This document shows, piece by piece, positions 6,667-61,333 of a stretch of DNA of 64,000 nucleotides. The stretch is taken from the IMG/VR virus record IMGVR_UViG_3300035670_000059, positions 32,001 through 96,000 of that record. One strand, given 5' to 3'. Each line of letters starts with the position of its first letter. The stretch's first letter is position 1. The DNA comes from a virus. The notes beneath the pieces are model-generated. The model did not search any database, was not told the DNA's origin, and saw only the letters and a list, made by a program, of their open reading frames with translations. The position numbers and the translations under genes are program-made.

Positions 6667-6685
6667 AAATAATTTATAATGCAAC

Positions 6686-6760: not shown

Positions 6761-6769
6761 ACTACCGCC

Positions 6770-7165: not shown

Positions 7166-7198
7166 CAGCATTTGGGTATAAATGGAAATATAAATAAT

Positions 7199-8497: not shown

Positions 8498-8542
8498 ATC
8501 GACTTTAATGTCTGGGACGCATATTTATAATAAAATAATAAT

Positions 8543-9190: not shown

Positions 9191-9203
9191 ATCGTATATT
9201 TAA
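9172..9203 (+). promoter_or_regulatory. Bacteroidota-type -33/-7 promoter
   Basis: TTGG-N19-TATATTTA upstream of ORF 9225. Confidence 0.6.
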
Positions 9204-9224
9204 CATTGATAAAAATATTGAATT

Positions 9225-28133: not shown

Positions 28134-28152
28134 TACATTAAAAAATTGGTTT

Positions 28153-28392
28153 ATGTCATTTACAGCAGCAAACATTATAGTAGGGGGTTCCAAAATTGAA
28201 GTGGAAACCCCCACTACTTCCTCCACCAACAATTCTACTACTCTTGAGCTAACAGACAAAGAACTTGAGCTGTTACTATTAACCATTAAAAATGGTTTGT
28301 TTAGAGGAGAATACGTTGAAACCGTATACAATCTAACTCTTAAGCTACAAAAACAGCTAGTAGATTTGAAATACAAAAACAACAAGCTATAA
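28153..28392 (+). CDS. Small hypothetical protein (possible fibre chaperone)
   Basis: ATG 28153 follows the upstream stop; LTDKELELLL...FRGEYVE...KLQ. Confidence 0.55.
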   Translation: MSFTAANIIVGGSKIEVETPTTSSTNNSTTLELTDKELELLLLTIKNGLFRGEYVETVYNLTLKLQKQLVDLKYKNNKL

Positions 28393-28423
28393 CTAGAAGC
28401 AGAGTATCCAATATTTATAACTA

Positions 28424-28480
28424 TATTATAGGCCCGTAAGGGAAGTGGACAGCACACATTTGCTGTAGCCAACCGTAATA
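28424..28480 (+). ncRNA. Candidate structured leader (three-way junction)
   Basis: CCC-GTAA-GGG hairpin, ACAGCA/TGCTGT stem and closing TATTATAGG/CCGTAATA, lying between ATATTTATAA (28411) and GTG start (28493). Confidence 0.4.
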
Positions 28481-28492
28481 AACAGATATAAA

Positions 28493-30055
28493 GTGCCAAA
28501 TTGGAAAAAAGTTATAGTATCGGGCTCCGATGCTAGTTTAAACTCGCTAGAAGTAACCTCTGCTTTTACAGCATCTGGTTTAATATACCCCACAACAGAC
28601 GGATTAGTCAATCAATCTATAGTAACAGATGGAGCAGGGAATTTATCATTTGGTAATCCCTATTCTGATAATACAATTGTTTACGGAAAAAATATTTCCG
28701 GAACTACTATACTAAAAGGCACCCCTTTATATTTTACAGGTAGTGGAACAGCGGGCAACGTAGTAGGTGTATTTCCTGCAGATGCCGGTAATCCTGCTAG
28801 AATGCCTGCAGGAGGCATTGCGGGAGAGCAATTATTGGATGAGGCTGAAGGTGTTATTTTATTAGATGGCTTTATTAACGGGGTAAATACATCAGCTTTT
28901 AACTCTGGAGACCCAGTATATGTAGCAGTAGGAGGTGGGTATACAAACATTAAACCTACCGGCTCAACTATTTTAATCCAAGCATTAGGATATGTAGAAA
29001 AATCCGCAATAAACGGTTCGGGAGTAATACAAGGTTCTGGTAGGGCAAATGACGTGCCCAACATTCAACAAGGATATACTTGGGTAGGAAATGCAGATGG
29101 TGTAGCAACACCTACTGCCACTTCTTCTTTTAGTGTAGCAAATGCAGTATCTGCCTCGTTTGCTACTAACGCATCAAGCTCTTTAATCGCTATTACAGCC
29201 TCTTACGCTCTATTTGCCGCAAACGGTGGTGGTGGAGGTGGAGGTGGCTCTACAGTAGTACATACCCAGTTAACAGCCTCAACTACGTGGAGTTTTTCCC
29301 ACAATCTAAACACACAAACTCCACTACTACAAGTATACAATATAGGATACGAGCAAATTATACCAAACGAAATCGTTAGTATAAACGCGTTTACCTCCGA
29401 AATACGATTTGACTATACACAAGCAGGTTACGCTGTTGCCTCTACAGGTGGTAGTTTAGCAGTTACGGGTTCAACACCTCGTTTAGTACAAACAGTAGCA
29501 GCTACAACGTGGTCTTTTGCTCACAATCTAGGAACCAAATACCCAGGATTTGAAGTATTCGATTCGAACGATGATGTTGTAATACCAGCAGGCATTCACG
29601 TAGTGGACGAAAATAATGCAGAAATATATTTTGCACTTCCTTCTACAGGTGTAGCAATAGCAAACTTTAGTGGTATAGAGGGTGTATTCCCATCTTCATC
29701 TTTTGCGTTTACCGCTTCATACTCAGACCAATTTAACATAGGTCAAACCCAAACTCAATACGCTACTGTTACCTCTTCTATAAACGGATCAAACACTGTC
29801 TTTACACAAGCAACAGGTTCGTACACCTCTGCTTTCTTCAAATACACAGTAACAAGTGGGTCTAATGCTCGTTCCGGAGAAATAATGTCGGTATGGAATG
29901 GAACAACTACAGCTTTTACAGACAACTCCACAACAGATATAGGCACAACAACAGATGTAACATCTTCTGTTGCTATATCAGGTACAAACGTACAGTTAAA
30001 CATGCAAACCAATACCGAGGGTTGGAGAATAAAATCAATAGCAACATTTATGTAA
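28493..30055 (+). CDS. Fibre/baseplate-associated structural protein
   Basis: GTG start; MPNWKKVIVSGS paralogous to 27108; poly-Gly hinge; two TTWSF(S/A)HNL repeats. Confidence 0.65.
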   Translation: MPNWKKVIVSGSDASLNSLEVTSAFTASGLIYPTTDGLVNQSIVTDGAGNLSFGNPYSDNTIVYGKNISGTTILKGTPLYFTGSGTAGNVVGVFPADAGNPARMPAGGIAGEQLLDEAEGVILLDGFINGVNTSAFNSGDPVYVAVGGGYTNIKPTGSTILIQALGYVEKSAINGSGVIQGSGRANDVPNIQQGYTWVGNADGVATPTATSSFSVANAVSASFATNASSSLIAITASYALFAANGGGGGGGGSTVVHTQLTASTTWSFSHNLNTQTPLLQVYNIGYEQIIPNEIVSINAFTSEIRFDYTQAGYAVASTGGSLAVTGSTPRLVQTVAATTWSFAHNLGTKYPGFEVFDSNDDVVIPAGIHVVDENNAEIYFALPSTGVAIANFSGIEGVFPSSSFAFTASYSDQFNIGQTQTQYATVTSSINGSNTVFTQATGSYTSAFFKYTVTSGSNARSGEIMSVWNGTTTAFTDNSTTDIGTTTDVTSSVAISGTNVQLNMQTNTEGWRIKSIATFM

Positions 30056-30064
30056 ATATAAAAT

Positions 30065-32263
30065 ATGTTAATAAATTCACCAAATATATCAGGTTCGTTA
30101 ACGGTAACAGGCAATACTGTTATAACGGGATCTTTAACTGTACTAGGCGGTATAAACGCAACCATTACAGGATCTGCTACAAGTGCCTCATACGTTGAGT
30201 ATAGCAATGTAGCTAATAAACCTGCGTTAGTATCAAGTTCGGCTCAAATTGTAGGATACAATATATTTGCTACTACTGGTTCAAACCAATTTAATGGGAG
30301 CCAAGCCATAACTGGTTCTTTGACTGTAACAGGACAAGTAGTTGCTCAAACCTTGAATGTACAACAGGTAACTTCTAGTATAGTATATTCTAGTGGAAGT
30401 AATATATTTGGAAATAGTTTAAGCAATACACAACAGTTTACTGGAAGTGTGTCTGTAACTGGGAGTTTAACAGTGAATGGAACGTCTGCTGTAACAGGAA
30501 CTGGAACAACTAACTACTTGCCAAAGTTTACAGGTGCAAGTACGATTGGAAATAGTACAATAACCGATAATGGAACGACTGTTAGTGTTTTAAATAGTGC
30601 TTATACTGACGTTTTAAGAGTTGGCTCTACATCAAACTCGATTTATTTCTATCCAGATGGAGGCTCAGTTAACATAATGACTGGTACAGGATTTTCAGGT
30701 ACTGGAATAACGTTTGCTAGTGGTTCTAATTACTTAGACTTTAATACTAACTCGCTAACAAGAATGCGCATCACCTCAGGTGGTAATATTGGTATAGGTA
30801 CAACTAGCCCAATAGGGCCTTTAGATATAGCTGTTCCCGCAACTGGTTCCGCAATTGCTGCAACAACTTCTCAACAAGCATATAATTTTTCAAGATTTAG
30901 AATAAAACATTATACAGATTCAAATCTTGGATTATCTATAGGATATGCAGGTGCTAACTTTACATACATCCAAGCTTGCTATAATGAAGGTAGTGTAGCA
31001 CCCCTATTAATAAATCCTTTTGGAGGTAATGTAAGCATAGGCACGGCTAGTCCTTCAGCAACTCTTCATGTAGTTAGAGCAAATGATGGAGGCTCAGGAA
31101 CACCTGGAGTGATTTTATCTACAGCTAATGGAGCAAATGATATTGTAAGATTCCAAGATGGAACTACTACTGTTGCTGTAGTAAAAAATAGTGGTAATAT
31201 TGGTGTAGGAGTTGCTAGTCCAACTGGGAGCTTACAAGTAAGCAATGGAACACTTGGTCTTAATTTACAAGCTCATGTTGTAAATATTACTGGTAATAAT
31301 TATTCAAGTGCAACTATTGGTATATATGATGCAGCCTCATTAGCTGCAAATACTGGTGGTGGAATTAATTTTGGTGCATTTTATACTTCTACACAATTCA
31401 CAGAATTTGCATATATAAGAACAAATAAAGATACTGCTACATCTGGGGAATATGGGGGTTCATTAATATTTGCAACAAGACCAAATGGTGGGAGTGTAAC
31501 TGAACGCATGCGCATCACCTCAGTCGGCAACGTGCTGATTGGGACAACAACAGATAATGGGGTAGGTAAATTACAAGTAAGTGGTAGAACATTTTTAGAT
31601 AATGGTACTGGCAACGCTTTATCTATTGATACAACTGTAGCAGATACTACTACAAGAGATGCTATTTATTTAGTTGAAAATGACGGTCAAGCAACAGGAC
31701 GTCAAGCTATTTCTTGGTATAATGAAAACCAAACCTACTATAAAGCAAGACTGTGGACTCAAGTAGGATCTAGTTATAACGCTACAGTATTTGGGATTGA
31801 TGCAGCTGATGATACTAGGAGTGTAGATACTAGATTGGCAATTAGAAACGGTTATGTTTTTATGCCATCTTTAACTACAGGGACAGGTATTGATGATTTA
31901 GGATGGTGGTCGAGTTCAGGTACTACTTGGGGTTTTAATGGAATGTTGATGCGCATATCTTCATCAGCACGATACAAAAAGAATATTAGAGATTTAGAAC
32001 TAGATACTTCAAAAATATTTGATTTAAGAACTATCTCCTTTGAAAATAATGAACTTACTGCAACAGACGGTATTACAAGTTTTGGACTACTTGCTGAAGA
32101 CGTAGCCGAAAAAATACCAATGCTAGCTACATATAATGAAGCTGGGCAGCCTGAAGGAGTTCAATACAAAATGTTAGCAGTTCTTTTGCTTGAAGAAATG
32201 AAAAAAATAAAAGCAGAAAACGACAACCTAAAATCCAGACTAGAGATTTTAGAACAATCTTAA
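30065..32263 (+). CDS. Tail fibre A with C-terminal intramolecular chaperone (peptidase S74-like)
   Basis: Shared core 30182-30481; RMRITS.GN.GIG repeats; SSARYKKNI...GLLAEDV...coiled coil. Confidence 0.8.
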   Translation: MLINSPNISGSLTVTGNTVITGSLTVLGGINATITGSATSASYVEYSNVANKPALVSSSAQIVGYNIFATTGSNQFNGSQAITGSLTVTGQVVAQTLNVQQVTSSIVYSSGSNIFGNSLSNTQQFTGSVSVTGSLTVNGTSAVTGTGTTNYLPKFTGASTIGNSTITDNGTTVSVLNSAYTDVLRVGSTSNSIYFYPDGGSVNIMTGTGFSGTGITFASGSNYLDFNTNSLTRMRITSGGNIGIGTTSPIGPLDIAVPATGSAIAATTSQQAYNFSRFRIKHYTDSNLGLSIGYAGANFTYIQACYNEGSVAPLLINPFGGNVSIGTASPSATLHVVRANDGGSGTPGVILSTANGANDIVRFQDGTTTVAVVKNSGNIGVGVASPTGSLQVSNGTLGLNLQAHVVNITGNNYSSATIGIYDAASLAANTGGGINFGAFYTSTQFTEFAYIRTNKDTATSGEYGGSLIFATRPNGGSVTERMRITSVGNVLIGTTTDNGVGKLQVSGRTFLDNGTGNALSIDTTVADTTTRDAIYLVENDGQATGRQAISWYNENQTYYKARLWTQVGSSYNATVFGIDAADDTRSVDTRLAIRNGYVFMPSLTTGTGIDDLGWWSSSGTTWGFNGMLMRISSSARYKKNIRDLELDTSKIFDLRTISFENNELTATDGITSFGLLAEDVAEKIPMLATYNEAGQPEGVQYKMLAVLLLEEMKKIKAENDNLKSRLEILEQS

Positions 32264-32300
32264 AAATATTTATAAACATAAAACACAAACACACAACACT

Positions 32301-32645
32301 ATGGCACTAACTTACAATTGGGTAGTATCTTCAATGGAAGAATATCCCACCACAGGCAGCTTAACCGATGTAGTATTTAACGTACATTGGAGAAGAAATG
32401 CAACAGAAACAGTAGATGATAAGCAATACTATGCGGACATATACGGTTCACTTTCCGTACCTGCTCCATCTCCAGAAGACTTTACCCCGTACGAAGATCT
32501 CACATTCGAGCAAGTATGTGGATGGTTGGAAGCAGGAATGGATGTTGAGGCTTTAAACACAAATCTAGCTGCTCAAATTGAAAGACAAATCAACCCACCA
32601 GTAGTATCTTTACCATTGCCTTGGGTTTCTGGAAGCGTTATCTAA
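32301..32645 (+). CDS. Small fibre-associated (assembly/chaperone-like) protein
   Basis: YNWVVSSME...VVFNVHW...FTPYEDLTFEQVCGWL...LPLPW; paralog of 39301-39612. Confidence 0.6.
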   Translation: MALTYNWVVSSMEEYPTTGSLTDVVFNVHWRRNATETVDDKQYYADIYGSLSVPAPSPEDFTPYEDLTFEQVCGWLEAGMDVEALNTNLAAQIERQINPPVVSLPLPWVSGSVI

Positions 32646-32656
32646 ACTATTAAAAC

Positions 32657-32830
32657 ATGCAATACTACGTTTTAAAGCAATTCCTACCCGGTACACAGAT
32701 ATGGGTATGGAAATTGAACGAGGAAGATACAGGATATGTCTTTGACACCGAACAAGAAGCCGAAGATATGTGTATTACTTTAAAGGAGCAAGACCCGTCT
32801 CGCGACTATAAGGTATCTACATCCATCTAA
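32657..32830 (+). CDS. Small hypothetical protein (57 aa; not in the ORF track)
   Basis: MQYYVLKQFLPGTQIWVWKLNEEDTGYVFDTEQEAEDMCITLKEQDPSRDYKVSTSI*; fills the intergenic gap; A-rich upstream. Confidence 0.6.
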   Translation: MQYYVLKQFLPGTQIWVWKLNEEDTGYVFDTEQEAEDMCITLKEQDPSRDYKVSTSI

Positions 32831-32892
32831 ACACTATATATTTATCACAAATAGGTTGTGTTCCTTTTGGACAGTGAAAAAAGGCATATAAT

Positions 32893-35640
32893 ATGGCAAA
32901 CGAATTTATAGCAAGAAAGGGTATTATATCCCTTGATGGTGCTCAAGTAACCGGCTCTTTATCCGTAACCGGCAACATTTCAGCCTCAATCTTTACAGGC
33001 TCATTTGTAGGAGATGGTTCCCAATTAAGTGGAATAGAAGGATTTCCGTTCACAGGCTCTGCAGGCATAACAGGCTCACTAACAGTAGTGGGCCCCGTTA
33101 ATGCTACCACATTTACAGGAGACGGTTCCCAACTTACAGGTATAGAAGGATTTCCATTTACAGGCTCCGCAGACATAACAGGCTCGCTTACAGTAGTAGG
33201 ACCAGTTAACGCTACTTCTTTTACAGGTTCGCTACAAGGAACAGCAACATCTGCTTCCTATATCCAACTTGCAAATATAGATGGATTTACCGCATATTCC
33301 TCTTCGGTCAACACTGCTATTGACAGCGTGTTGGATGCAACAACTCCGCTAACTGCCACGGTAAATACCGGAAGTTCTCCATTTACCTTAACGAGCCAAA
33401 GCATTGTAGTAGCCGATAGTACAAATGGAAACTTAACTATCAACCTACCAGACTTAAACACTATAGTTGGAACGCCAAACCAAAAACCAATTGTAGTATA
33501 TAAAAACGACTATTCGCAAAACGTAATATACGTTAATCCTAGTGGTTCCCAACTAGTAAATGGGGCAAGCCAAGATATAATCGTAAGTATACAACTTGCG
33601 GTAATTTACAATCCAACAAGTGCGGGATGGGTAACGGAAGGTACTTCGGCCCAAAGTTTAGCGGAACTAGAACTATTTTTTCTTCCGTTAACAGAAACGG
33701 GTTCGCTTGCAACAACGGGTTCAAATGTATTTATTGGAAACCAAACCATAACCGGTTCTTTAACAGTAACCGGAGGTATAAACGCAACCATAACAGGTTC
33801 AGCTGCTTCAGCTTCCTATGTAGAATATGCTAACGTGGCAAATAAGCCTACGTTGGTATCAGGATCTGCTCAAATATCGTTTAACGGTATAACAGACAAA
33901 CCAACACTTGTATCTGGTTCTTCTCAAGTAAGCTATACAGGATTATCCGATATACCCGCTAGTATAGTGTCTAGCTCAACTCAAATCACAGGATACAATA
34001 TATTTGCTACTACGGGTTCTAACCAGTTCAATGGTAGCCAAGCTATAACTGGCTCACTTACTGTAACTGGTCAAGTTGTAGCTCAAACTTTAAACGTACA
34101 ACAGGTAACTTCTAGTATTGTGTATTCAAGCGGGTCCAATGTGTTTGGAAACAGTTTATCTAACACTCAACAATTTACTGGTTCTTTACAGGTAAGTGGT
34201 TCATCACATAATATATTAGGAAATGTTGGTATAGGTCCTACTGGAACCCCAGTATCCGAACTACAAGTTGGTAAATCAAGTGATGTAACCATTGCAATGT
34301 CCAATTCAAGTTCTGTTACAAGCGGTAATAGAGGGAGCTTAGCATGGTACAATTCAAGCAACTCAACTGTTGCTAATATTAAAGCAACTGCAGTTACCGA
34401 CAACGTAGGCACACAATTAGAGTTTTACACAAGACCGGCTGCTGGTTCTCTTACTCAAGTGTTAACCATATCCTCCACAGGTGCAGCTACCTTTAATACA
34501 ACTACCGATACCACATCAATTTCAATGTTAAGCACTGGGACTGCAAGTGGATTAAGACTACAAAATACAGGTGGCACTGCATCAGATTGGATAATTCAAA
34601 GTGATGGGGGTGCAGTAGCTGGGCAAGCAGCATTAAGATTTTATTCAATTACAGCAACTGCTTATAGAATGTCTATTGATGGATCTGGTAATGTTGGTAT
34701 AGGCACTACTAGTCCAGGATATGATGGTGCCGGATATGGAGCAGTAAGATATGTAACTATAAACAATGCTTCAGGTACAGGTAGTAACTTAGAACTAGCA
34801 ACAGGCACTACTGCCAATGATGGCTATATAGGTGCAATTGATTTTATTAACACTTCTAATACAGGTGCACCAGGTGCAGGCAGATATGGAATTGCTTCAA
34901 TTAGAGCATATACAACTAATGCAAGTGCAACAAATACAGGAGGAGGATATTTAACATTCAACACTAAAGCAGATGGTGGAAGCGGAGCAGAAAGAATGCG
35001 CATCACCTCAGGAGGGGAAGTATCAATCACTGGAATTAATTTAACAGTTGGTACTGGCGGAGGTGCAGGTACACTTAATTTAGACCAATCTACAGTTAGA
35101 AGATGGAAACTAAGTTCAGGTGGAATTACTTCGGGGGTTTTTAGTATAATTAATGGGAGTGACGATTCTCCTGCATTAAATATTAGTAGCTCAAATATAG
35201 TATCTTTCTATATTGGGGGTGGTTTTGCAAACCAAACAACTTTAGATGCTAATACTCGTTTTCAAGGTCCAAATATTTCTGTAGCAGCAGCTAAAGCATA
35301 TGCTTGGAATACCTATTCAGACCAAAGAATTAAGGAAAATATAAATCCTTTACCTTATGGCTTAAACGAAATACTACAATTAAATCCTGTTTCATATAAT
35401 CAGCACGATTCAGAAGTAATTGATAGTGAAATAGTATTAAAAGAAACATATAAATCAACAATTGGATTAATTGCACAGGAAGTTAATGATTTTATACCTG
35501 AAGCTGTAGGTATTGGAAATGATACTGAACTTTGGGGATTAGATTATAACAAAATAGTCCCAGTCCTTGTCAAAGCCATCCAAGAACAACAAGCCCAAAT
35601 CGAATCCCTTAAAGCCGAAATACAAACACTAAAACAATGA
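32893..35640 (+). CDS. Tail fibre B with C-terminal S74-like chaperone
   Basis: MANEFIARKG; shared core ~33808-34200; YSDQRIKENI...GLIAQEV...LVKAIQEQQ. Confidence 0.8.
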   Translation: MANEFIARKGIISLDGAQVTGSLSVTGNISASIFTGSFVGDGSQLSGIEGFPFTGSAGITGSLTVVGPVNATTFTGDGSQLTGIEGFPFTGSADITGSLTVVGPVNATSFTGSLQGTATSASYIQLANIDGFTAYSSSVNTAIDSVLDATTPLTATVNTGSSPFTLTSQSIVVADSTNGNLTINLPDLNTIVGTPNQKPIVVYKNDYSQNVIYVNPSGSQLVNGASQDIIVSIQLAVIYNPTSAGWVTEGTSAQSLAELELFFLPLTETGSLATTGSNVFIGNQTITGSLTVTGGINATITGSAASASYVEYANVANKPTLVSGSAQISFNGITDKPTLVSGSSQVSYTGLSDIPASIVSSSTQITGYNIFATTGSNQFNGSQAITGSLTVTGQVVAQTLNVQQVTSSIVYSSGSNVFGNSLSNTQQFTGSLQVSGSSHNILGNVGIGPTGTPVSELQVGKSSDVTIAMSNSSSVTSGNRGSLAWYNSSNSTVANIKATAVTDNVGTQLEFYTRPAAGSLTQVLTISSTGAATFNTTTDTTSISMLSTGTASGLRLQNTGGTASDWIIQSDGGAVAGQAALRFYSITATAYRMSIDGSGNVGIGTTSPGYDGAGYGAVRYVTINNASGTGSNLELATGTTANDGYIGAIDFINTSNTGAPGAGRYGIASIRAYTTNASATNTGGGYLTFNTKADGGSGAERMRITSGGEVSITGINLTVGTGGGAGTLNLDQSTVRRWKLSSGGITSGVFSIINGSDDSPALNISSSNIVSFYIGGGFANQTTLDANTRFQGPNISVAAAKAYAWNTYSDQRIKENINPLPYGLNEILQLNPVSYNQHDSEVIDSEIVLKETYKSTIGLIAQEVNDFIPEAVGIGNDTELWGLDYNKIVPVLVKAIQEQQAQIESLKAEIQTLKQ
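33010..33225 (+). repeat. In-frame tandem duplication, 2 x 108 nt
   Basis: GDGSQL(S/T)GIEGFPFTGSA(G/D)ITGSLTVVGPVNAT(T/S)FT occurs twice. Confidence 0.9.
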
Positions 35641-37346
35641 GCTATTTAAAAGACAGAGAAATATGGTTAAGTAGTGTACCAACCGGTAATCCACCAGCAG
35701 GGTACGTTTGGGTATTTATCCAAAACGGTGTTTTCGTTGTACGAGACAGCAGTGGTGTAGATAAAATCATGGCTACTACCACGGGCACTGTTACGAACGC
35801 AACAAGTGCATCCTACGTTGAATATAGTAACGTAGCAAATAAACCCGCGTTGATTTCCAGTTCAGCTCAAATTGTAGGATACAATGTGTTTGCAACTACG
35901 GGTTCAAATCAATTTAATGGGAGCCAAGCTGTTACCGGGTCTTTGACTGTGACGGGACAGGTAGTTGCACAGACTTTAAACGTGCAACAAGTAACTTCTA
36001 GTATAGTATATTCAAGTGGGTCCAATGTGTTTGGAAACAGTTTATCCAATACACAACAGTTTACAGGTAGTATGTCTGTAACTGGAAGTATGACAGTGAA
36101 TGGAGCAGGTACATTTGCAAGTAGTATAACGGCTGGAAACAATTTATTAATAAATAATCTTGCAGCATCCAAAAAAGGATACACATACCAAAGCCCAGCA
36201 TCTAACTGGGGTCCACAAGTTTCGGGCTTATATTTTACTCCAAATAATGCTGTTGATGCACAAACAACATTTACACTTGAGTTGTGGAATGGTGTCGGTT
36301 CAATAATAACACCTTTAACAATAACAGATACAGGCACATCTACCTTTACAGGTACAAGTGCTTCTCCTGTTTTAACATTATCAAATAGTACCGGGGGTAC
36401 TAAAGCAGATTTTACAATTACAGAAAATACAGGCTTAATTGTTAATTCATACGAAAGCACATCAGCAAGAAGTATTGATTTTAGAGTTGCTGGAACATCT
36501 GCTTTATTAATAGCATCCTCAGGCGCAGCTACCTTTTCGAGTAGTGTAACGGCTACAAGTTTAATTACGGGAACAGCTGGTGGTTCTTCTATTAACATTA
36601 CAACAAATGGTAATAACGGAACATCTGGAAGTCCATTACAAACTAATCTTAATTTTTACGGATTCAACTCAAATTTAAATGGTCAAATACGAGTAGATGA
36701 TATTGCGGGTACTGCACAAATTGGTACAATGAAATTTTACACTTGGAACTCAGGCCAAGTATTAGCACTAACATTAACTCAAACAGGTGCAGCTGCATTT
36801 TCAAGCACTATTGACTTAAGTGGTGCTATTACTAATTTTGGAACAGGTACTGGAACATATACTAGATCTGTTTGGTATAATGATCCTACTAATCAAATCC
36901 TATTTGAAAATGCTAGACAAACTGATGATGCCAGCGGTACTGGTAGAACAGTATACTTTACTTGGAGAGGAGGACCTAGTGTAGGTGGAGGTGTTCAACT
37001 ACAACATGGAACAAACGCTTGGGCAGCATACACTTCAGATGCTCGACTTAAAACCAAAGTAGCTGATGTTGAAAATGGTATAGAGGTTGTAATGAGATTA
37101 AACCCAATTAAATTTAAATGGAGTAGAGAACTAGAAAATAGTAGAACAGTAACAGGATTTACAGCTCAAAACGTTGAAGAAGCAATACCTGATGCGGTAT
37201 TTAATTCATGGCAGGATGAAGAATTAGGTGATGTAAAATCATACTACTCAGACTATTTAATTCCTTATCTAGTAAAAGCTATCCAAGAACTCAAATCCGA
37301 AAACGACAACCTAAAATCCAGACTAGAAGTTCTAGAACAATCCTAA
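35637..37346 (+). CDS. Tail fibre C with C-terminal S74-like chaperone
   Basis: Shared core 35805-36104; TSDARLKT...LNPIKFKW...GFTAQNV...LVKAIQEL. Confidence 0.8.
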   Translation: MSYLKDREIWLSSVPTGNPPAGYVWVFIQNGVFVVRDSSGVDKIMATTTGTVTNATSASYVEYSNVANKPALISSSAQIVGYNVFATTGSNQFNGSQAVTGSLTVTGQVVAQTLNVQQVTSSIVYSSGSNVFGNSLSNTQQFTGSMSVTGSMTVNGAGTFASSITAGNNLLINNLAASKKGYTYQSPASNWGPQVSGLYFTPNNAVDAQTTFTLELWNGVGSIITPLTITDTGTSTFTGTSASPVLTLSNSTGGTKADFTITENTGLIVNSYESTSARSIDFRVAGTSALLIASSGAATFSSSVTATSLITGTAGGSSINITTNGNNGTSGSPLQTNLNFYGFNSNLNGQIRVDDIAGTAQIGTMKFYTWNSGQVLALTLTQTGAAAFSSTIDLSGAITNFGTGTGTYTRSVWYNDPTNQILFENARQTDDASGTGRTVYFTWRGGPSVGGGVQLQHGTNAWAAYTSDARLKTKVADVENGIEVVMRLNPIKFKWSRELENSRTVTGFTAQNVEEAIPDAVFNSWQDEELGDVKSYYSDYLIPYLVKAIQELKSENDNLKSRLEVLEQS

Positions 37347-37382
37347 AAATATTTATACGAAGAATACAGTAAACAAGACCTA

Positions 37383-39299
37383 ATGATACAAGATAAAATA
37401 TTCTTTGACGAAAAAGACCCAACCGGTGTTTCCTACAACACCCCATTCACCGTTTACGGAAGCTACGAGGGTAGATTGTGGAGTAAAACCCCAAGTGGTA
37501 CTATAAAATACTACACACAAAACAGTGATTTATCTGTTTATGCTACAACAGGTTCAAATTCCTTTAACGGAAACCAAACCGTAACTGGTTCTTTAACAGT
37601 AACAGGAGGAATAACGGGATCCGCTACAACTGCTTCTTACGTTGAATATACTAGTGTAGCAAATAAACCTTCACTTGTATCAAGTTCGGCTCAAATTGTT
37701 GGGTATAACGTATTTGCTACTACCGGTTCCAATCAATTTAACGGAAGTCAAGCTGTAACAGGGTCTTTAACGGTAACAGGGCAGGTAGTTGCTCAAACAT
37801 TGAATGTACAACAGGTAACCTCTAGCATTGTGTATTCTAGTGGAAGCAATATATTTGGAAATAGTGTATCCAACACACAACAGTTTACTGGTAGTGTGTC
37901 TGTGACTGGGAGTTTGACAGTGAATGGAGCAGGTACATTTTCTAGCGCAGTTACATCTAATTCCTTTATCTCTGATGGAACTGCAAATGAAGGCGTAATA
38001 CGAATTGAACGTGACACTGTAAGTACTAACACAGTTATTGGAGCTTTAAACTTTACAAACAATAATGGCTCTACAGTTTATGGTAGAGTTCGTGGGGGTA
38101 GAAATTCTGCTGGAGACGGATATGCAAGTTTAGGTACAGGTGTTGGGGATAATTTATATGCAATAGAAGGTGGTAGTGTGGGTATAGGCACGGCTAGTCC
38201 TGAAACATTAAGCAACAATACTACTTTGCAAATTGATGGGACAAACCATTCATTTGTAAGAACTGGAAATTCAAGTTATGGGGGATATTTTGCTACAATC
38301 CCAACTGCTGAAGTTTTATGCATCGCCAATGTTCGAAACCCAGTTACAGGTACTTACAACAATACTGGAAAAGCCGCTAGCGGGATAAATTTATTTTCTG
38401 AAAGTTCAAATGGTTATATTACTTTTCTTACTACTGCAACAAATAATAGTGGTCCAAGCGAACGCATGCGCATCACCTCAGGTGGCAATGTTGGTATAGG
38501 AATTACAAACCCAACAGCACAACTATCATTAAAAAACCAAATTTCAAATGGTTCAACCCCTGTTTCATCTTATGCTGCAACAAATGGGGTTGATGGGCAA
38601 AATTTCTTTAATGGATATTATGCTGTAAATAGTGATGGTTTAGGACCATATCCAAGATATTTTGATATTGTTTCAACTGGCTCTCCTGATGGTTCAAACG
38701 GTGGTAGTAACATTAGATTCTTTACAAATCCAATTACAAATAATTCACCAGCAGTAGAACGCATGCGTATCACCTCAGGTGGTGTTGTTAGAATAACCAG
38801 CTTTACAACTAATGGTTTAGTTGGCACAGATTCATCAGGAAATTTAGGTGTTGTAATTTCAGAATACACTGAAATTGCCACAGGAACAATAACTTACTCA
38901 ATGAACTCTGGTTCTCCTTGGGCAATTAATAATTCATTCCCTGCTACTATCAGAAACTATGAGGATGATGGGATGGCAGGTTCAGGAGGTGTAGATACTA
39001 ACCTTAACTTAGGTAGAGGAGTAACATTTGATTTAGGTTCAGCAAAAACAGTGAGAAAAATAGTTGAAAGAGGGTATCCTACAAAAAATCTAAACCAAAT
39101 TATTGTTCAATATTCAACAGATAATTCAAATTGGACTGACATATACGTTTATAATCATGTTTATGGTAATACACAGAAGGATATGGAATTTAATCCAACA
39201 GGAGCAATTTCTGCTAGATATTGGAGATGGTTTATACATAGCTGGTCAGAAAGAGAAGTACAAAACTACTATACATACGAATCAATAATTTATACATAA
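37383..39299 (+). CDS. Tail fibre D with C-terminal discoidin (F5/8 type C)-like domain
   Basis: Shared core 37629-37928; VTFDLGSAKTVRKI...VQYSTDNSNWTD...ARYWRW; no S74 motif. Confidence 0.75.
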   Translation: MIQDKIFFDEKDPTGVSYNTPFTVYGSYEGRLWSKTPSGTIKYYTQNSDLSVYATTGSNSFNGNQTVTGSLTVTGGITGSATTASYVEYTSVANKPSLVSSSAQIVGYNVFATTGSNQFNGSQAVTGSLTVTGQVVAQTLNVQQVTSSIVYSSGSNIFGNSVSNTQQFTGSVSVTGSLTVNGAGTFSSAVTSNSFISDGTANEGVIRIERDTVSTNTVIGALNFTNNNGSTVYGRVRGGRNSAGDGYASLGTGVGDNLYAIEGGSVGIGTASPETLSNNTTLQIDGTNHSFVRTGNSSYGGYFATIPTAEVLCIANVRNPVTGTYNNTGKAASGINLFSESSNGYITFLTTATNNSGPSERMRITSGGNVGIGITNPTAQLSLKNQISNGSTPVSSYAATNGVDGQNFFNGYYAVNSDGLGPYPRYFDIVSTGSPDGSNGGSNIRFFTNPITNNSPAVERMRITSGGVVRITSFTTNGLVGTDSSGNLGVVISEYTEIATGTITYSMNSGSPWAINNSFPATIRNYEDDGMAGSGGVDTNLNLGRGVTFDLGSAKTVRKIVERGYPTKNLNQIIVQYSTDNSNWTDIYVYNHVYGNTQKDMEFNPTGAISARYWRWFIHSWSEREVQNYYTYESIIYT

Positions 39300-39300
39300 T

Positions 39301-39612
39301 ATGAGAACTACTTATTGGAAAATAAACAAACTTGAAGTAATACCCGAAGAAGGTAGCTTAACAGAAGTAATACAATATGCATATTATCAAAGAATTGTTG
39401 AAGAAGGACAGTATTCTACTTTTATAGAAGGTAAGATGTTGTTCCCTACTCCCGAAAGTTCAAATTTTATACCTTATGCAGATATTACTGAAGCTGATAT
39501 TATATCTTGGATTTTACCTAATATGAATTTAGAAGAAGTTGATTTATTTTTAAATCAAAAATTAGATAGCATTATATCAGAAAGTGCTTATTTTCCCCCT
39601 TTACCATTTTAA
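39301..39612 (+). CDS. Small fibre-associated protein, paralog of 32301-32645
   Basis: YWKINKLE...GSLTEVI...FIPYADITEADIISWI...PPLPF. Confidence 0.6.
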   Translation: MRTTYWKINKLEVIPEEGSLTEVIQYAYYQRIVEEGQYSTFIEGKMLFPTPESSNFIPYADITEADIISWILPNMNLEEVDLFLNQKLDSIISESAYFPPLPF

Positions 39613-39661
39613 AATTTTTATATTTATAACACGAATACCCACCTACCCAATACATTAACAA

Positions 39662-41815
39662 ATGCTAATACATAACGCAGAAGTAACCGGATCGTTAAAC
39701 ATAAACAATGTTCCATTTAATAGCGGCTCTTTTAGCGGCTCGTTTCAAGGAGATGGTTCTCAATTATCCGGTGTAACAGGGGCAACAACTGCCTCGTACG
39801 TTGAATATAGCAATGTTGGAAATAAGCCCGCGTTAGTATCGGGCTCCTCTCAAATTATATATAGTGGATTATCTGGTATCCCGAGTGGGATAGTATCAAG
39901 TTCCGCTCAAATTGAAGGGTATGGTATATTTGCCACTACGGGTTCAAATTCATTTAACGGTTCTCAAACTGTAACTGGTTCTTTGACCGTGACCGGTCAA
40001 GTTGTTGCACAAACTTTGAATGTACAACAGGTAACTTCTAGTATAGTATATTCAAGTGGAAGTAACGTGTTTGGAAATAGTTTAGCGAATACACAACAGT
40101 TTACTGGAAGTGTATCTGTGACAGGGAGTTTAGCGGTAAATGGAGCTGGTACATTTGCAAGTAGTGTTGGGATTAATGGAAGTCCTGGAACTTCTTTTCC
40201 ATTAGAAGCATACATAAACAATTCAACTGCTTACTCTTCAACATCAAGAGGAAACGTATTTCGTGTTTACAATAGCAATACGGGCGCAAATATTTTTGCA
40301 GGAATTGAATTAGGGGGTGCAGGAAGTGCTAATGATGGATTAGCAGGATTGAATGCAATAGTAACTGGAAATGGCAGTGCTGCCTTAACTTTTTACACAA
40401 GAGATTCCAATACATTTGCCGAACGCATACGTCTCACTTCCGGAGGTAATGTCGGTATAGGTACTAATAGTCCTGTTGGAGGAGGTGGTGCCTCGGATAG
40501 AACATTGGGTATAAATGCCGCAACAGGTGCTGCTACATTTGTAACAGGAATGATAAACGGTACACGATATAGTACCTTATTTACTGCTGCCGATAGTGTT
40601 GTTTTAGAAACTAATGCAGCTATACCTTTAGCATTTAATACCAACTCAACCGAACGCATGCGTATCACCTCAGGTGGGGATGTTTTTATAAACAATTCAT
40701 CTGGAGTAACATTAAATAGTTTAACAAATAAACTAAGCGTTTCATCTACTACTTATAATTTATTTGATATTTCAAGATTTTCCGATAATGCTTTTGGTCC
40801 AAACTTTTACCTTGTTAAATCAAGAAATGGTAGTATTGGTGGAAATACAATTGTTGCAAATGGAGATAATTTAGGTAATATAAATTGGGTAGGAGCAAAC
40901 GGAACAGGATTTACTGATGCTGCAAGTATTAAAGCAGAGGTTGATGGTGGCCCTGGAGCAAGTGATATGCCAGGTAGATTAGTATTTTCTACTACAGCTG
41001 ATGGTGCTACTAGTGTTACCGAACGCATGCGCATCACCTCAGGTGGTAATATTGGTATAAGTACAAATTCTCCTTTGGGCAGTTCTGTTGAAAGAACAAT
41101 TCATTTAAGTGATGGAGGTGGAGGTTATGCTACGGTATATGTTACTAATAGCGCAAATACTGTTAGGTCTATTTTTGGCATGCAAAGTGCTCAAAATTTA
41201 GTAGTAGTAGGGAGTCAAACAAATACTCCTGTTGCTATATACACTAACGATACCGAACGAATGCGCATCACCTCAGGTGGTAATGTTGGTATAGGCACTA
41301 ATAACCCAGGGAAAAGACTAGATGTTAGGGCTAGTGCTGCAGGAGAAGTCGCAATAATTTCAAATGAAAGAAATAGCACCGGAGATTATGCCCTTGTTAC
41401 TTCTTTAGGGTCAAATTGCAATAATACTTCTGCATATCATTACATAGCCGCTACAGGTGGAGCAGATCGATTATATATTTATGGAAATGGAAATGTAGTA
41501 AATATAAATGGTTCTTATGGTACTCTATCAGATATTTCATTAAAGGAAAATATTGTAGATGCTACACCAAAACTTGCTGATTTGCTACAATTAAAAGTTA
41601 GAAACTTTAATTTAATTGGTAGTGAGGAAAAACAAATTGGTTTTATAGCCCAAGAATTTGAGAAAATATTTCCTAAAATGGTAGATATTGATGGTAAAAA
41701 TGGGATGAAAACTATTAAAACATCTGTTTTAGTACCTATGTTAGTTAAAGCCATCCAAGAACTCTCAGCAAAAGTAGAAACATTAGAAGCTGAAATACAA
41801 ACACTAAAACAATAA
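39662..41815 (+). CDS. Tail fibre E with C-terminal S74-like chaperone
   Basis: Shared core 39788-40144; four ERMRITSGG-type repeats; LSDISLKENI...GFIAQE...LVKAIQEL. Confidence 0.8.
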   Translation: MLIHNAEVTGSLNINNVPFNSGSFSGSFQGDGSQLSGVTGATTASYVEYSNVGNKPALVSGSSQIIYSGLSGIPSGIVSSSAQIEGYGIFATTGSNSFNGSQTVTGSLTVTGQVVAQTLNVQQVTSSIVYSSGSNVFGNSLANTQQFTGSVSVTGSLAVNGAGTFASSVGINGSPGTSFPLEAYINNSTAYSSTSRGNVFRVYNSNTGANIFAGIELGGAGSANDGLAGLNAIVTGNGSAALTFYTRDSNTFAERIRLTSGGNVGIGTNSPVGGGGASDRTLGINAATGAATFVTGMINGTRYSTLFTAADSVVLETNAAIPLAFNTNSTERMRITSGGDVFINNSSGVTLNSLTNKLSVSSTTYNLFDISRFSDNAFGPNFYLVKSRNGSIGGNTIVANGDNLGNINWVGANGTGFTDAASIKAEVDGGPGASDMPGRLVFSTTADGATSVTERMRITSGGNIGISTNSPLGSSVERTIHLSDGGGGYATVYVTNSANTVRSIFGMQSAQNLVVVGSQTNTPVAIYTNDTERMRITSGGNVGIGTNNPGKRLDVRASAAGEVAIISNERNSTGDYALVTSLGSNCNNTSAYHYIAATGGADRLYIYGNGNVVNINGSYGTLSDISLKENIVDATPKLADLLQLKVRNFNLIGSEEKQIGFIAQEFEKIFPKMVDIDGKNGMKTIKTSVLVPMLVKAIQELSAKVETLEAEIQTLKQ

Positions 41816-41849
41816 CCCAATATTTATAACCATACAAGTTTAAAATTAT

Positions 41850-41880
41850 TTGGAAATCCAAACTATATTTCATATATTAA
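41850..41880 (+). promoter_or_regulatory. Bacteroidota-type -33/-7 promoter
   Basis: TTGG-N19-TATATTAA; ATATTTATAA also present at 41820. Confidence 0.55.
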
Positions 41881-41907
41881 CCAACAAAACTAAATTTTAA
41901 ATCGTTT

Positions 41908-42366
41908 ATGCAAAACACAACGTTACAATTAGGACAAATTTTACAATTAGAAACCGAAGTAAATGGAGTAGTAAACACTCAAACTGGCGAAGTTGTTTCT
42001 AAAGGCCTCATGAAGGAAGTCCTCAAATTCAAAACCAAATACTGGCTAATGCAATTGTCCGATGATTTGGTAGAAGAAAAAAAGAAAATCGAAGCTGTTC
42101 GAGACCAACTGGTTAAAGAATTAGGTCAAGAAGATGAAACGGGAGCAATTTCCCTACCCGTGTTCATCAATGAAGTACAGGATGAAGAAGGTAAACTAGT
42201 TTCTAGAGAAGTTAACCCAAAGTTCCTCGACTTTCAAGAAAAATTCAATGAGCTATTAGCCGAAACTAAAGAACTTTCCCACGGTAAATTTTTACTAGAG
42301 GATTTCGAACTTGTAGAATCTGCTGAAGTATATCCTGTATTTTTCAAGCTAATTTCTGCTGAATAA
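41908..42366 (+). CDS. Hypothetical protein
   Basis: 152 aa, acidic and helical. Confidence 0.65.
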   Translation: MQNTTLQLGQILQLETEVNGVVNTQTGEVVSKGLMKEVLKFKTKYWLMQLSDDLVEEKKKIEAVRDQLVKELGQEDETGAISLPVFINEVQDEEGKLVSREVNPKFLDFQEKFNELLAETKELSHGKFLLEDFELVESAEVYPVFFKLISAE

Positions 42367-42367
42367 C

Positions 42368-42619
42368 ATGGAAAAAATCCAATTAGCTCCTGAGGAGCTA
42401 TCTAAGTTGCAAGATTTAAACAATAAAGTAGCAGATATTGTAGCATCTCTAGGTCAAATAGAAATACAAACATCTCTTCTGCAAGAAAACAAAAAATCTC
42501 TATTGGCTAGTTTTTCCCAAATCCAACAGGATCAAGATCAACTAGCCCAAGAGCTAACCCAAAAATATGGGGATGGTACAATAGACATGACTTCCGGAGA
42601 ATTTACTAAGGCAGGATAG
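42368..42619 (+). CDS. Small coiled-coil protein
   Basis: LGQIEIQ...LTQKYGDGTIDMTSGEF. Confidence 0.65.
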   Translation: MEKIQLAPEELSKLQDLNNKVADIVASLGQIEIQTSLLQENKKSLLASFSQIQQDQDQLAQELTQKYGDGTIDMTSGEFTKAG

Positions 42620-42675
42620 TTTTTTGAAAGGGTTTCTCATATTTATAACAAAACAATATAAAATAACTTAATAAA

Positions 42676-44400: not shown

Positions 44401-44444
44401 GGAGTTAAAATTAGATATTTATAATAAAATAAAGCACATATAAA

Positions 44445-44933
44445 ATGGCAGTATTAGATCCAAACGAAATATTCTTCACAGCTTTTGAACCAAAGCAGGC
44501 GAATAGATTTATAATGTATATAGATGGCATCCCCTCCTATACCGTAAAAGGTATGGGAGCGGTAACATTATCTCAAGGAACAGTAGCTCTTAACCACATT
44601 AACGTTCAACGTTTTGTTAAGGGTAAATCTACTTGGGGTCCAATTCAATTCACCCTATTTGATCCAATCACTCCTTCTGGAGCACAAGCTGTAATGGAGT
44701 GGGTTAGATTACACCACGAATCTGTAACTGGTAGAGATGGATACTCTGATTTCTACAAGAAAGATCTAACATTCAACGTGTTAGGCCCAGTAGGGGATGT
44801 AGTATCTGAGTGGATTATCAAGGGTGCTTTAATTACTGAAGCTAACTTTGGTGAATATGGTTGGGATACAGAAAATACAGCTATCAACTTAACAATGACT
44901 GTTCAACCAGATTACTGTGTATTGAACTTTTAA
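44445..44933 (+). CDS. Tail tube protein (T4 gp19-like)
   Basis: FEPKQANRF; LFDPITPSGAQAVMEW; YKKDL...LGPVGDVVSEW; follows sheath. Confidence 0.85.
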   Translation: MAVLDPNEIFFTAFEPKQANRFIMYIDGIPSYTVKGMGAVTLSQGTVALNHINVQRFVKGKSTWGPIQFTLFDPITPSGAQAVMEWVRLHHESVTGRDGYSDFYKKDLTFNVLGPVGDVVSEWIIKGALITEANFGEYGWDTENTAINLTMTVQPDYCVLNF

Positions 44934-59383: not shown

Positions 59384-60244
59384 ATGGATTTATCACTATT
59401 GAAAAAGAAGTTAGATGGTCTTCAACAGAAAACATCACCTAAGGAAAAAACCGATTACTCTAAAATTTATTGGTCCCCTAAGGTAGGAAAACAACAAATC
59501 CGTATTGTTCCTTCTGCTTTTAATAAAGCAAACCCGTTCACGGAACTTAAAATTTATTACGGTATTACAAACAAAGTTATGATTTCTCCTTTGAATTTTG
59601 GAGAAAAGGATCCGATTGCTCTATTTGCTTCAAAACTTAGAGGTGAATACAACAAGGAAAATTTCGTACTAGCTAAAAAACTTGACCCTAAAGTTCGTAT
59701 TTTTGCTCCCGTAATTGTACGTGGTGAAGAAGATATGGGTGTTAGATTGTGGCAATTTGGCAAGCAAGTGTACGAGGAATTGATCAGCCTAGCTGTTGAT
59801 GAAGAAATTGGTGATTATACCGATATTGTAAATGGTAGAGACATTACTGTTGATACTGTAGGACCGGAATCAACTGGTACCCCATACAATAAATCTTCAG
59901 TACGTGTTAAGTTGAAAACCTCCCCATTGAGTGAAAATAAAGCTCAAGTAGAAAGTTGGTTGGCCGAACAACCTAACCCAACAGATTCATTTAAGAAATA
60001 TACGTTTGATGAAATGAAATCTGCTCTGGAAAAATGGTTGTCTCCTGGAGATGAGGCTGAAGAAGGTGATATAATTGACGAGGCTAATGATGGCTTTGAA
60101 GATGAAGCTCCGGTTAGCAAGTTACCTTGGGAAGAAGAACTCGAAACACAACCTAAAAAACAAGCCAATTATAGCTTGAACACTACTAAAGTAAAACAAT
60201 CTAAAGGAGATCAATTCAACGCCTTGTTTGAGGACGAAGATTAA
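59384..60244 (+). CDS. Single-stranded DNA-binding protein (T4 gp32-like)
   Basis: YWSPKVGKQQIRIVP; LWQFGKQVY; GDYTDIVNGRD; acidic tail ending FNALFEDED. Confidence 0.8.
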   Translation: MDLSLLKKKLDGLQQKTSPKEKTDYSKIYWSPKVGKQQIRIVPSAFNKANPFTELKIYYGITNKVMISPLNFGEKDPIALFASKLRGEYNKENFVLAKKLDPKVRIFAPVIVRGEEDMGVRLWQFGKQVYEELISLAVDEEIGDYTDIVNGRDITVDTVGPESTGTPYNKSSVRVKLKTSPLSENKAQVESWLAEQPNPTDSFKKYTFDEMKSALEKWLSPGDEAEEGDIIDEANDGFEDEAPVSKLPWEEELETQPKKQANYSLNTTKVKQSKGDQFNALFEDED

Positions 60245-60249
60245 CATTT

Positions 60250-61332
60250 ATGGCTAAAAAAAGAAACACATCACTTTCCGCGGCAGTGTCCGCGGAAATT
60301 AAATCTAACTTTGATCTAAGCAAATTTAAAACCAAGAAAGGCTTAGATAAAAACGTTAAATTTAAAGACCAACAGTGGATTCCTTTATCTCCTGCTTTTC
60401 AAGAAGTTAGCTCTATCCCTGGAATCCCTATGGGTCATATTGTTATGCTCCGAGGACATTCAGATACAGGTAAAACAACTGCAATGATTGAAGCAGCGGT
60501 ATCAGCCCAAACCAATGGTATTTTACCAGTATTCATCATTACAGAAATGAAATGGAACTGGGACCATGCAGTGCAAATGGGATTAGACATTAATATTACT
60601 CGAGATCCAGAAACAAATGAAGTTATTGACTATGAAGGTAATTTTATTTATGTTGATCGAGAAACATTAAATTCCATTGAAGATGTTGCCGCATTTATCA
60701 TGGATTTGTTAGATGAGCAGAAAAAAGGTAATCTACCGTATGATCTGTTGTTTTTGTGGGACAGTATTGGTTCTATTCCTTGTGATCTATCAATTCGTTC
60801 TAACAAAAATAATAACGAATGGAATGCAGGTGCTATGTCAACTCAATTTGGCAATAACGTAAACCAAAAGATTGTAATGTCTCGTAAAGAATCATCACCT
60901 TACACTAACACACTTGTGGTAGTAAATAAGGTATGGACTTTAAAACCCGAATCACCAATGGGTCAGCCCAAACTGATGAATAAGGGTGGGTATGCAATGT
61001 GGTACGATGCAACATTTGTAATTACATTTGGAAATGTTATGTCAGCCGGTACTAACAAAATCAAAGCCATTAAAAATGGTAAGGAAGTAGAGTTTGCTAA
61101 ACGTACAAATCTTCAAATCGATAAAAACCACGTTAATGGTATTACTACCAGAGGTAAGATTATCATGACACCACATGGTTTCATTATGGATGATGAAAAA
61201 GCTATCAAAGAATATAAAAATATGTACGCCGAAGAATGGGCTCGTATTTTAGGTGGTGGCGATTTCTCTATAATTGAAGAAAGCGAAGAAGCAACAATTA
61301 CTGTATCTCAGTTCGCACACGAACCCGAATAA
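60250..61332 (+). CDS. recA: RecA/UvsX-like recombinase
   Basis: GIPMGHIVMLRGHSDTGKTT Walker A; LFLWDSIGS Walker B; KGG.AMWY; IDKNHV. Confidence 0.85.
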   Translation: MAKKRNTSLSAAVSAEIKSNFDLSKFKTKKGLDKNVKFKDQQWIPLSPAFQEVSSIPGIPMGHIVMLRGHSDTGKTTAMIEAAVSAQTNGILPVFIITEMKWNWDHAVQMGLDINITRDPETNEVIDYEGNFIYVDRETLNSIEDVAAFIMDLLDEQKKGNLPYDLLFLWDSIGSIPCDLSIRSNKNNNEWNAGAMSTQFGNNVNQKIVMSRKESSPYTNTLVVVNKVWTLKPESPMGQPKLMNKGGYAMWYDATFVITFGNVMSAGTNKIKAIKNGKEVEFAKRTNLQIDKNHVNGITTRGKIIMTPHGFIMDDEKAIKEYKNMYAEEWARILGGGDFSIIEESEEATITVSQFAHEPE

Positions 61333-61333
61333 C

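Follow-up and report, generated by a model that had tools for sequence, protein, structure and literature searches.

In T-even phages, recombination has been described at conserved motifs, namely, the His boxes of gp37 and the glycine-rich motifs of gp38 (Tetart et al., 1996, 1998, as cited in Trojet et al., 2011, PMC3157838). For Bdellovibrio fibres, Caulton et al. (2024; PMC10769870) describe intertwined trimeric β-helix domains with conserved capping loops at their ends and with tips exchanged in evolution. Here we compare with these systems the tail fibre locus of a 64,000-nucleotide stretch of viral DNA (hereinafter, the window), bases 32001–96000 of the 113.7 kb IMG/VR virus record IMGVR_UViG_3300035670_000059, which is ~70% complete and has 34.6% G+C. 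Four out of five fibre genes of the window carry a 23–24-nt sequence (hereinafter, the motif) belonging to the peptide ERMRITSGG. The motif lies at joints between protein modules, its codons are homogeneous within genomes, the modules between joints form mosaic cassettes, and one natural variant differs by an indel of exactly one module. The reading that we favour, at a probability of about 0.7, is that homology guides recombination at a joint that is structurally permissive and preserves the frame, and that gene conversion homogenises the copies.

The five fibre genes, named A, B, B2, C, and D, lie upstream of the tail sheath gene (positions here and below are those of the window, unless a contig is named):

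30065..32263, + strand: fibre gene A, 732 aa; motif at 30758 and 31502; weak C-terminal match to the S74 chaperone
32893..35640, + strand: fibre gene B, 915 aa; S74 chaperone at the C-terminus; motif at 34990, ordinary-codon equivalent at 34663
35637..37346, + strand: fibre gene B2, 569 aa; S74 chaperone at the C-terminus; without an ERMRITS copy, carrying the ~300-nt N-proximal core
37383..39299, + strand: fibre gene C, 638 aa; F5/8 type C (galactose-binding-like) tip; motif at 38460 and 38757
39662..41815, + strand: fibre gene D, 717 aa; S74 chaperone at the C-terminus; motif at 40421 (degenerate), 40652, 41021, and 41255

A scan with the 23-mer of the consensus, rare-codon version (GAA CGC ATG CGC ATC ACC TCA GG) gave seven copies at three or fewer mismatches, all on the + strand (31502, 34990, 38460, 38757, 40652, 41021, 41255), and none in 100 shuffles of the sequence. 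A translation-guided search added two further copies, at 30758/30761 and 40421. The nine copies in four fibre genes that had been listed in the initial annotation were thus recovered, eight good and one degenerate, all direct and all in frame; in the whole 113.7 kb record no copy was found outside the fibre genes, and none on the reverse strand.

30758..30781, + strand: motif copy 1, TRMRITSG, with the 17-nt core ATGCGCATCACCTCAGG exact
31502..31525, + strand: motif copy 2, ERMRITSV
34990..35013, + strand: motif copy 3, ERMRITSG, with AGA as the first Arg
38460..38483, + strand: motif copy 4, exact 23-mer; right boundary of the cassette common to contig L225
38757..38780, + strand: motif copy 5, CGT version
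40421..40444, + strand: motif copy 6, degenerate (ERIRLTSG, five mismatches); left end of the module missing from protein P0021
40652..40675, + strand: motif copy 7, CGT version; left joint of the widely shared D module
41021..41044, + strand: motif copy 8, exact 23-mer; right joint of the widely shared D module
41255..41278, + strand: motif copy 9, CGA as the first Arg
38172..38203, + strand: degenerate joint in fibre C, GGSVGIGTASP, without the ERMRITS half

The module ends share the pattern hydrophobic-x-F-x-T ... ERMRITSGGNVGIGTxxP. As had been pointed out from the sequence, the peptide equivalent at 34663 (YRMSIDGSGNVGIG) is written in ordinary codons. A literature search with the peptide strings found no paper naming an ERMRITSGG motif.

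The motif contains codons that are rare in the genome (CGC, ATC, ACC), in line with what the initial annotation noted for the fibre genes. Of all codons in the genome for the respective amino acid, CGC makes up 6% (Arg), ATC 14% (Ile), ACC 14% (Thr), and TCA 23% (Ser); given the peptide, the consensus codon set would arise with a probability of 7e-6 per copy. Identity between the copies in the window forms an island, with 85% in the 24-nt core, 54% in the next 30 nt, and 31–35%, the random level, in the 90-nt flanks. At the level of synonymous codons, the eight good copies are 81% identical (147/182), compared to 51% in the adjacent GNVGIGT half and 57% in the 75-aa N-proximal module of the five fibre paralogues, a module highly conserved as protein.

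The same holds beyond the window. A degenerate back-translation scan of IMG/VR yielded at least 120 loci and at least 140 strict ERMRITSGG copies, and among the loci listed the codon version differs from lineage to lineage. Where a viral contig other than that of the window has at least two strict copies (17 contigs), codon identity is 87% within contigs and 40% between them, the highest within-contig value in 2000 permutation runs being 58%; the 24-nt core of these contigs is 96% identical and the flanks 31–33%. The contigs counted across lineages are not phylogenetically independent. Taken together, copies are more alike at synonymous sites within genomes (81–87%) than between genomes (40%), the pattern by which concerted evolution is recognized.

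These data bear on two simpler explanations. According to the first, the copies are leftovers of a recent tandem duplication, with nothing maintaining them. The modules do share a fold and a loose sequence pattern; however, flank identity at the random level, against 85–96% in the core, rules out recent duplication, and old unmaintained copies should have scrambled synonymous sites, because the N-proximal module is only 57% codon-identical despite its conserved protein. We find this explanation hardly credible. According to the second, constraint acts on the protein only: recombinants fold only if joined at domain boundaries, and the codons reflect translational selection (for accuracy or pausing) at the strand-turn. 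The peptide is indeed nearly invariant and situated at a module boundary, and bacteria in general frequently favour CGY, ATC, and ACC for translational accuracy. Protein constraint alone is nevertheless insufficient, because codons are homogeneous within genomes yet differ between genomes: the copies of one genome agree in the synonymous codon used for Ser (TCA, AGT, or TCG), Ile, and Gly, and the codon agreed upon varies from genome to genome. Moreover, GGG at the first Gly is left unexplained, the equally conserved GNVGIGT half has ordinary, dissimilar codons, and the RNA structure around the copies gave no signal (z −1.85 to +0.45). This second explanation appears unlikely, and the comparisons support the view that something besides protein constraint keeps the synonymous sites of the motif alike.

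A separate observation concerns codon choice across lineages. In very AT-rich fibre open reading frames (ORFs; IMG/VR loci L013–L132), the second Arg of the motif is CGY in 73% of cases versus 18% in the background, the first Gly is GGG in 60% versus 7%, and Ile is ATC in 27% versus 8%. This bias remains unexplained, either by codon usage or by any model tested.

The position of the motif in the fold is suggested by a sequence search of solved structures, which aligns it to SERMRITGSGLVGIGTPAP of the Bdellovibrio fibre Bd1334 (PDB:8OML), and by a monomer AlphaFold2 model of D, built from a 45-sequence alignment. The mean predicted local distance difference test (pLDDT) score of the model is 60, with 80–92 in the module at residues 320–470 and 80–89 in the chaperone at residues 640–717. 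In all four D copies ERMRIT is modelled as a β-strand, SGG as a turn, and NVGIG as the next strand. The best Foldseek matches of the model are Bd1334, the T5 L-shaped tail fibre pb1, and Bd2439, followed by weaker matches to Bd3182 (E 7e-3) and MyRF; the E-values are 1e-7 for 8OML, 1e-6 for 4UW7, 2e-5 for 8OL4 (root-mean-square deviation 2.7 Å, 106 columns), and 7e-3 for 8ONC. Of the features that define S74-type fibres (T5 pb1/K1F/MAT-like), the chaperone domain is found in B, B2, and D, and the β-helix shaft fold in the D model. Hence, ERMRITSGG probably closes each trimeric β-helix module of S74-type fibres (the T5 pb1/Bdellovibrio MAT fold), and, since the motif would end each module, the segments between copies are predicted to be successive modules of one fold. 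The segments had been described as unrelated, which is correct for the DNA, given the random-level flanks, but not for the proteins. Closing each module would explain the conservation of the peptide; the conservation of the codons is not thereby explained.

Comparison of the fibre genes with other viral sequences shows whole modules exchanged, or missing, at these joints, in the following segments:

38199..38513, + strand: cassette in fibre C common to L225, bounded by joints on both sides
40427..40657, + strand: D module 2, 77 aa, exactly missing from the otherwise near-identical P0021
40679..41020, + strand: interior of the shared D module, aa 340–453 (114 aa), 85–99% identical in 21 other proteins

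For fibre C, two contigs are informative. L011, whose neighbouring genes are 88–91% identical to those of the window, matches C at 96% up to position 38203, directly after GIGTASP, and is unrelated beyond. The metagenome contig L225 is unlike C up to the joint at 38172..38203, then ~96% identical over 38199–38513, through ERMRITSGGNVGIG, and then unrelated again. The two contigs thus break on opposite sides of one joint.

For fibre D, a protein search with residues 230–620 gave more than 5000 matches. In the 21 proteins sharing the D module, the 110-aa neighbours fall into 20 clusters on the left and 21 on the right at 60% identity, and divergence begins directly outside xRMRITSGG on the left and TERMRITS on the right. 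Protein P0021 is identical to D in 84 out of 86 residues before motif copy 6 and in 127 out of 128 after copy 7, and thus appears to be a natural one-module deletion variant relative to D, bounded by these two copies. Within aa 58–170 of D, P0021 also shows two further in-frame insertions beside other short repeats (PTLVSGS... and TGSL...), and therefore repeat-bounded indels are not confined to the ERMRITS joint. In contig L227, which shares the D module at 86.5% nucleotide identity, both flanking motifs have other codons; this suggests that the DNA of the motif goes with the genome and not with the module.

Similar junctions occur in other lineages. For example, the 98.6% identity between L107 and L112 starts exactly at the motif, and L090 and L097 have in common a 210-nt cassette, 97.6% identical, between GNVGIGT and ERMRI. 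Among the sharp ends of high-scoring segment pairs (HSPs) in motif-bearing ORFs, 14 out of 63 fall within 10 nt of the motif span versus 5.2 expected (2.7-fold, P = 0.0005); when all HSP ends are pooled, 21 out of 187 do so versus 10.9 expected (~2-fold), an excess that fades at wider tolerance. Crossovers are spread over the whole 54-nt extended motif. The breakpoint enrichment at the motif is real but modest, and together with L011, L225, the D module, P0021, and the two contig pairs above it agrees with the expectation that breakpoints between relatives should cluster there.

Contig pairs sharing DNA have the same codon version in 45 out of 81 cases, against a background of 4.9%, and the partners in the most recent-looking exchanges of the window, L011 and L225, carry its own version. 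These facts could be read in a stronger way, with the DNA motif being under second-order selection as a standard connector: letter-identical joints would speed the reshuffling of receptor-binding modules, and codon versions would act as compatibility dialects, directing exchange towards phages of the same version. Such selection would also fit the retention of rare codons in eight out of nine copies and the departure of motif codons from the usage of their own ORFs across AT-rich lineages (CGY 73% versus 18%, GGG 60% versus 7%). On the other hand, passive gene conversion yields the same homogeneity within a genome, relatedness confounds the link between version and sharing, second-order selection is difficult to sustain, and the present data do not separate "selected for" from "by-product." We therefore regard selection of this kind as possible, though doubtful. 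The same applies to its broader, tentative form, in which the ERMRITSGG patch would be a selected DNA-level connector across a very large pool of uncultured phages, every gene pool would have a codon dialect of its own, and dialect identity would decide which phages trade receptor-binding modules.

Homology-guided recombination with gene conversion, the reading we prefer, would operate as follows. The near-invariant ERMRITSGG(NVGIGTxxP) would supply the closing β-strand, the Gly-Gly turn, and the next strand of each module, so that every module boundary would offer a short, in-frame patch of similar DNA at a point where both folds survive a swap. Through these patches, whole modules could be exchanged, duplicated, or deleted by general homologous recombination, the partners being fibre genes of one genome, co-infecting phages, or prophages, and the likely enzymes being the phage's own gp32-like single-strand DNA-binding protein (SSB) and UvsX-like recombinase, or host RecA. 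Such events, or gene conversion over short tracts, would also copy the patch from joint to joint, and copies in one genome would drift together to one codon version, here the rare-codon one. The guidance of crossovers by DNA identity and the enzymes named are what we infer from sequence comparison.

Several facts weigh against this reading. Roughly three quarters of the sharp breakpoints in fibre ORFs with the motif lie away from any recognizable copy, partly because degenerate joints escape the search pattern and partly because other joints exist, e.g., the one where the N-proximal core stops, near aa 155 of D. The two motif copies at the left boundary of the L225 cassette share only ~70% identity, and hence the crossover there need not have used DNA identity between the partners. 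L227 indicates homogenisation after transfer and not the crossover itself. A filter acting on the protein alone would likewise leave the surviving breakpoints concentrated at domain boundaries. Finally, all evidence for exchange comes from the comparison of natural sequences. As for the initial proposal that the motif is kept at the DNA level as a recombination or gene-conversion point, the in-frame joint, the exchange, addition, and loss of modules, and the likeness of codons stand; selection for the DNA site itself is unproven, because gene conversion between copies of a constrained peptide gives the same picture.

Candidate enzymes for general recombination are encoded in the window:

59384..60244, + strand: gp32-like single-strand DNA-binding protein (PF08804, 36.6 bits, over the cut-off)
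60250..61332, + strand: UvsX-like/RecA-family recombinase (phrog_97, E 8e-16; Pfam RecA 25.3 bits, just under the cut-off of 27)
61274–62377: 5'-3' exonuclease

The region 59384–63741 as a whole resembles a T4-like replication/recombination cluster, comprising the gp32-like SSB, the UvsX-like recombinase, the 5'-3' exonuclease, and a DnaB-like helicase. The UvsX-like protein is a candidate enzyme for the exchanges. The search for a recombinase elsewhere in the genome, recommended at the outset, was thus successful for these general functions and negative for site-specific ones: neither Phage_integrase (tyrosine) nor Resolvase (serine resolvase/invertase) had a match in the 113.7 kb, ~70% complete record, and the same is true of RVT_1 (reverse transcriptase).

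A site-specific enzyme (invertase, integrase, or homing endonuclease) recognizing the palindromic core and cutting and rejoining modules there would be an alternative source of the exchanges. Its appeal comes from the palindromes of the core (ATGCGCAT, GCATGC, and CCTCAGG), for which the initial annotation suspected a special role, and from the homing endonuclease gene adjoining the fibre locus in the relative L011. That role is not borne out: the palindrome ATGCGCAT is present only in the minority CGC version (CGC at the second Arg in 20 out of 96 motif versions from AT-rich phage fibre ORFs, with G+C at third codon positions, GC3, below 0.25), other lineages homogenise other sequences, all copies are direct, crossovers are spread over ~54 nt, and the ~70% complete record has no integrase or resolvase/invertase match. 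A site-specific enzyme is thus very unlikely. The idea of a palindrome or restriction site as such was rejected as well, as the palindromes of the genome are mostly the motif copies themselves and are missing from the versions of other lineages.

In L011, the gene in question (positions 1759–2427 of that contig, – strand; GIY-YIG/NUMOD1) lies between the fibre locus and the sheath gene, where it is missing in the window. Homing endonucleases can stimulate exchange of flanking DNA.

Two known mechanisms of fibre diversification were also considered. A shufflon or invertible segment was rejected, since all copies are on the + strand, with no inverted sites, and no site-specific recombinase was found in the ~70% complete record; a diversity-generating retroelement (DGR) was rejected in the absence of an RVT_1 match in that record and of a template repeat/variable repeat pair, the self-comparison of 28000–44500 being limited to matches in the N-proximal core, in the motif islands, and in short stretches at 3' ends. 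The predicted difference from shufflons and DGRs is thereby confirmed.

As for the genome context, the + strand carries nearly every gene of the record. The sheath gene downstream of the fibre array is listed together with the five copies of the N-proximal core:

42676–44400: tail sheath gene
30164–30481, 33965–34182, 35798–36116, 37611–37940, 39891–40156: N-proximal core copies

The sheath protein is 51% identical to that of the Flavobacterium myophage vB_FspM_immuto (a 160 kb phage), and hundreds of viral contigs have related sheaths; the phage of the window is probably a ~160 kb Flavobacterium-phage-like myovirus. According to PHROGs, A, B, C, and D are tail fibre proteins, while the best matches of B2 are baseplate wedge, tail spike, and tail fibre families. 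The Pfam Peptidase_S74 scores are 42.8 bits for B, 50.9 for B2, and 41.2 for D (cut-off 22), with A just under the cut-off at 20.7; C ends in an F5/8 type C domain instead of the Peptidase_S74 chaperone.

Other repeats are present in the array. The N-proximal core, ~220–320 nt with the peptide FATTGSNQFNGSQ...TGSLTVNG, is common to all five fibre genes at 75–85% nucleotide identity, and the similarity of relatives to D often stops at its 3' edge, a second type of joint not linked to ERMRITS. The 3' ends of fibre genes are alike in pairs, A/B2 at 88% (32202–32274 versus 37285–37357) and B/D at 79% (35569–35638 versus 41744–41813); such short homology patches could serve as additional exchange points. 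Fibre B contains an internal tandem duplication (33002–33119 versus 33110–33227, 82% over 118 nt, peptide FTGDGSQLTGIEGFPFTGSA.ITGSLTVVGPVNAT). Two small paralogous ORFs, 32301–32645 after A and 39301–39612 after C, belong to phrog_7802, the second also matching Pfam DUF7936; they may encode fibre accessory or assembly proteins.

A megablast search of the fibre region against named phages gave no match. The closest relatives by tail sheath (L133, with 96% amino acid identity, L134, and L136) have wholly different fibre regions, which left no orthologous fibre genes to align in them, L135 retains a 68-nt match at the 5' end of fibre D and nothing more of the region, and a search of IMG/VR with the whole of fibre D for close relatives gave three distant loci only. 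In L133 (positions 1–9443 of that contig), the place of the five-gene array is taken by a giant fibre of NTA(V/I)G repeats, at least 1429 aa long, with a C-terminal tail that by eye is similar to the fibre chaperone domain; ~8 unrelated ORFs follow it. The whole receptor-binding region thus appears to have been replaced between close relatives.

Tail fibres decide which bacteria are hosts, and their mosaicism is generally known, the exact joints being rarely mapped. Here the joint is pinned to 8–9 residues, the strand and the Gly-Gly turn at the end of a β-helix module, in a very large family that includes T5-like fibres and Bdellovibrio adhesins besides thousands of proteins from aquatic metagenomes. 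One module occurs in no fewer than 20 different contexts, and there is a natural variant in which the difference amounts to one module. From this follow a rule for reading fibre modularity from sequence, a boundary along which domains can naturally be analysed, and a short coding patch whose concerted evolution can be put to the test. The unexplained CGY/GGG bias bears on Botstein's modular theory, namely, on whether linker sequences are selected as such. If the motif did prove to be a selected connector, host-range evolution would be channelled by ~24 nt of synonymous sequence, over a pool in which the collection searched has more than 5000 relatives of the modular part of D.

Among known systems, shufflons, Cin/Gin/Min segments, and DGRs likewise diversify receptor-binding proteins of phages or plasmids, but the former need inverted sites and an invertase, and DGRs need a reverse transcriptase and a template repeat, whereas here the sites are direct and no such enzymes were found. 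Concerted evolution of dispersed repeats by gene conversion has in common with our case copies that are alike within a genome and different between genomes, with identity in a short tract; unlike the general case, the tract here is ~24 nt long and lies within coding sequence, at a structural domain boundary that is also the mosaic joint. In the Bdellovibrio mosaic adhesive trimer (MAT) fibres and T5 pb1 (PDB:8OML, 8OND, 8ONC, 4UW7/4UW8), a fold search finds the same fold, and Bd1334 has the same peptide. Their β-helix domains are described with a capping loop V-G-G/N-π-x-x-P-x-x-x-L, which we liken to GNVGIGTxxPxxxL at the level of the consensus, and the tips of MAT fibres as "swapped out in evolution" (PMC10769870). 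That paper is concerned with protein architecture and contains no DNA-level joint, codon homogeneity, or mapped breakpoints; these come from the present analysis.

The nearest precedent is provided by T-even fibres and adhesins, for which, as cited above, the principle of motif-guided fibre recombination is already established. In both cases short conserved motifs stand between variable specificity segments, the receptor-binding protein is altered, and general phage recombination, as described for T-even phages and proposed here, would need no site-specific enzyme. Like those fibres, this locus combines a motif alike in DNA that flanks variable segments, natural breakpoints in or next to it, and general recombination functions. 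The differences lie in the peptide, the fold, and the fibre family (stacked trimeric β-helix modules with an S74 chaperone), in the several copies per gene and genome that delimit whole stackable modules of 77–250 aa and not loops, and in the genome-specific codon homogenisation of a 24-nt island seen here, our case being known from sequence comparison alone. Thus, the ERMRITSGG joint is a new and clear instance of a known route by which phages reshape the proteins that recognize their hosts.

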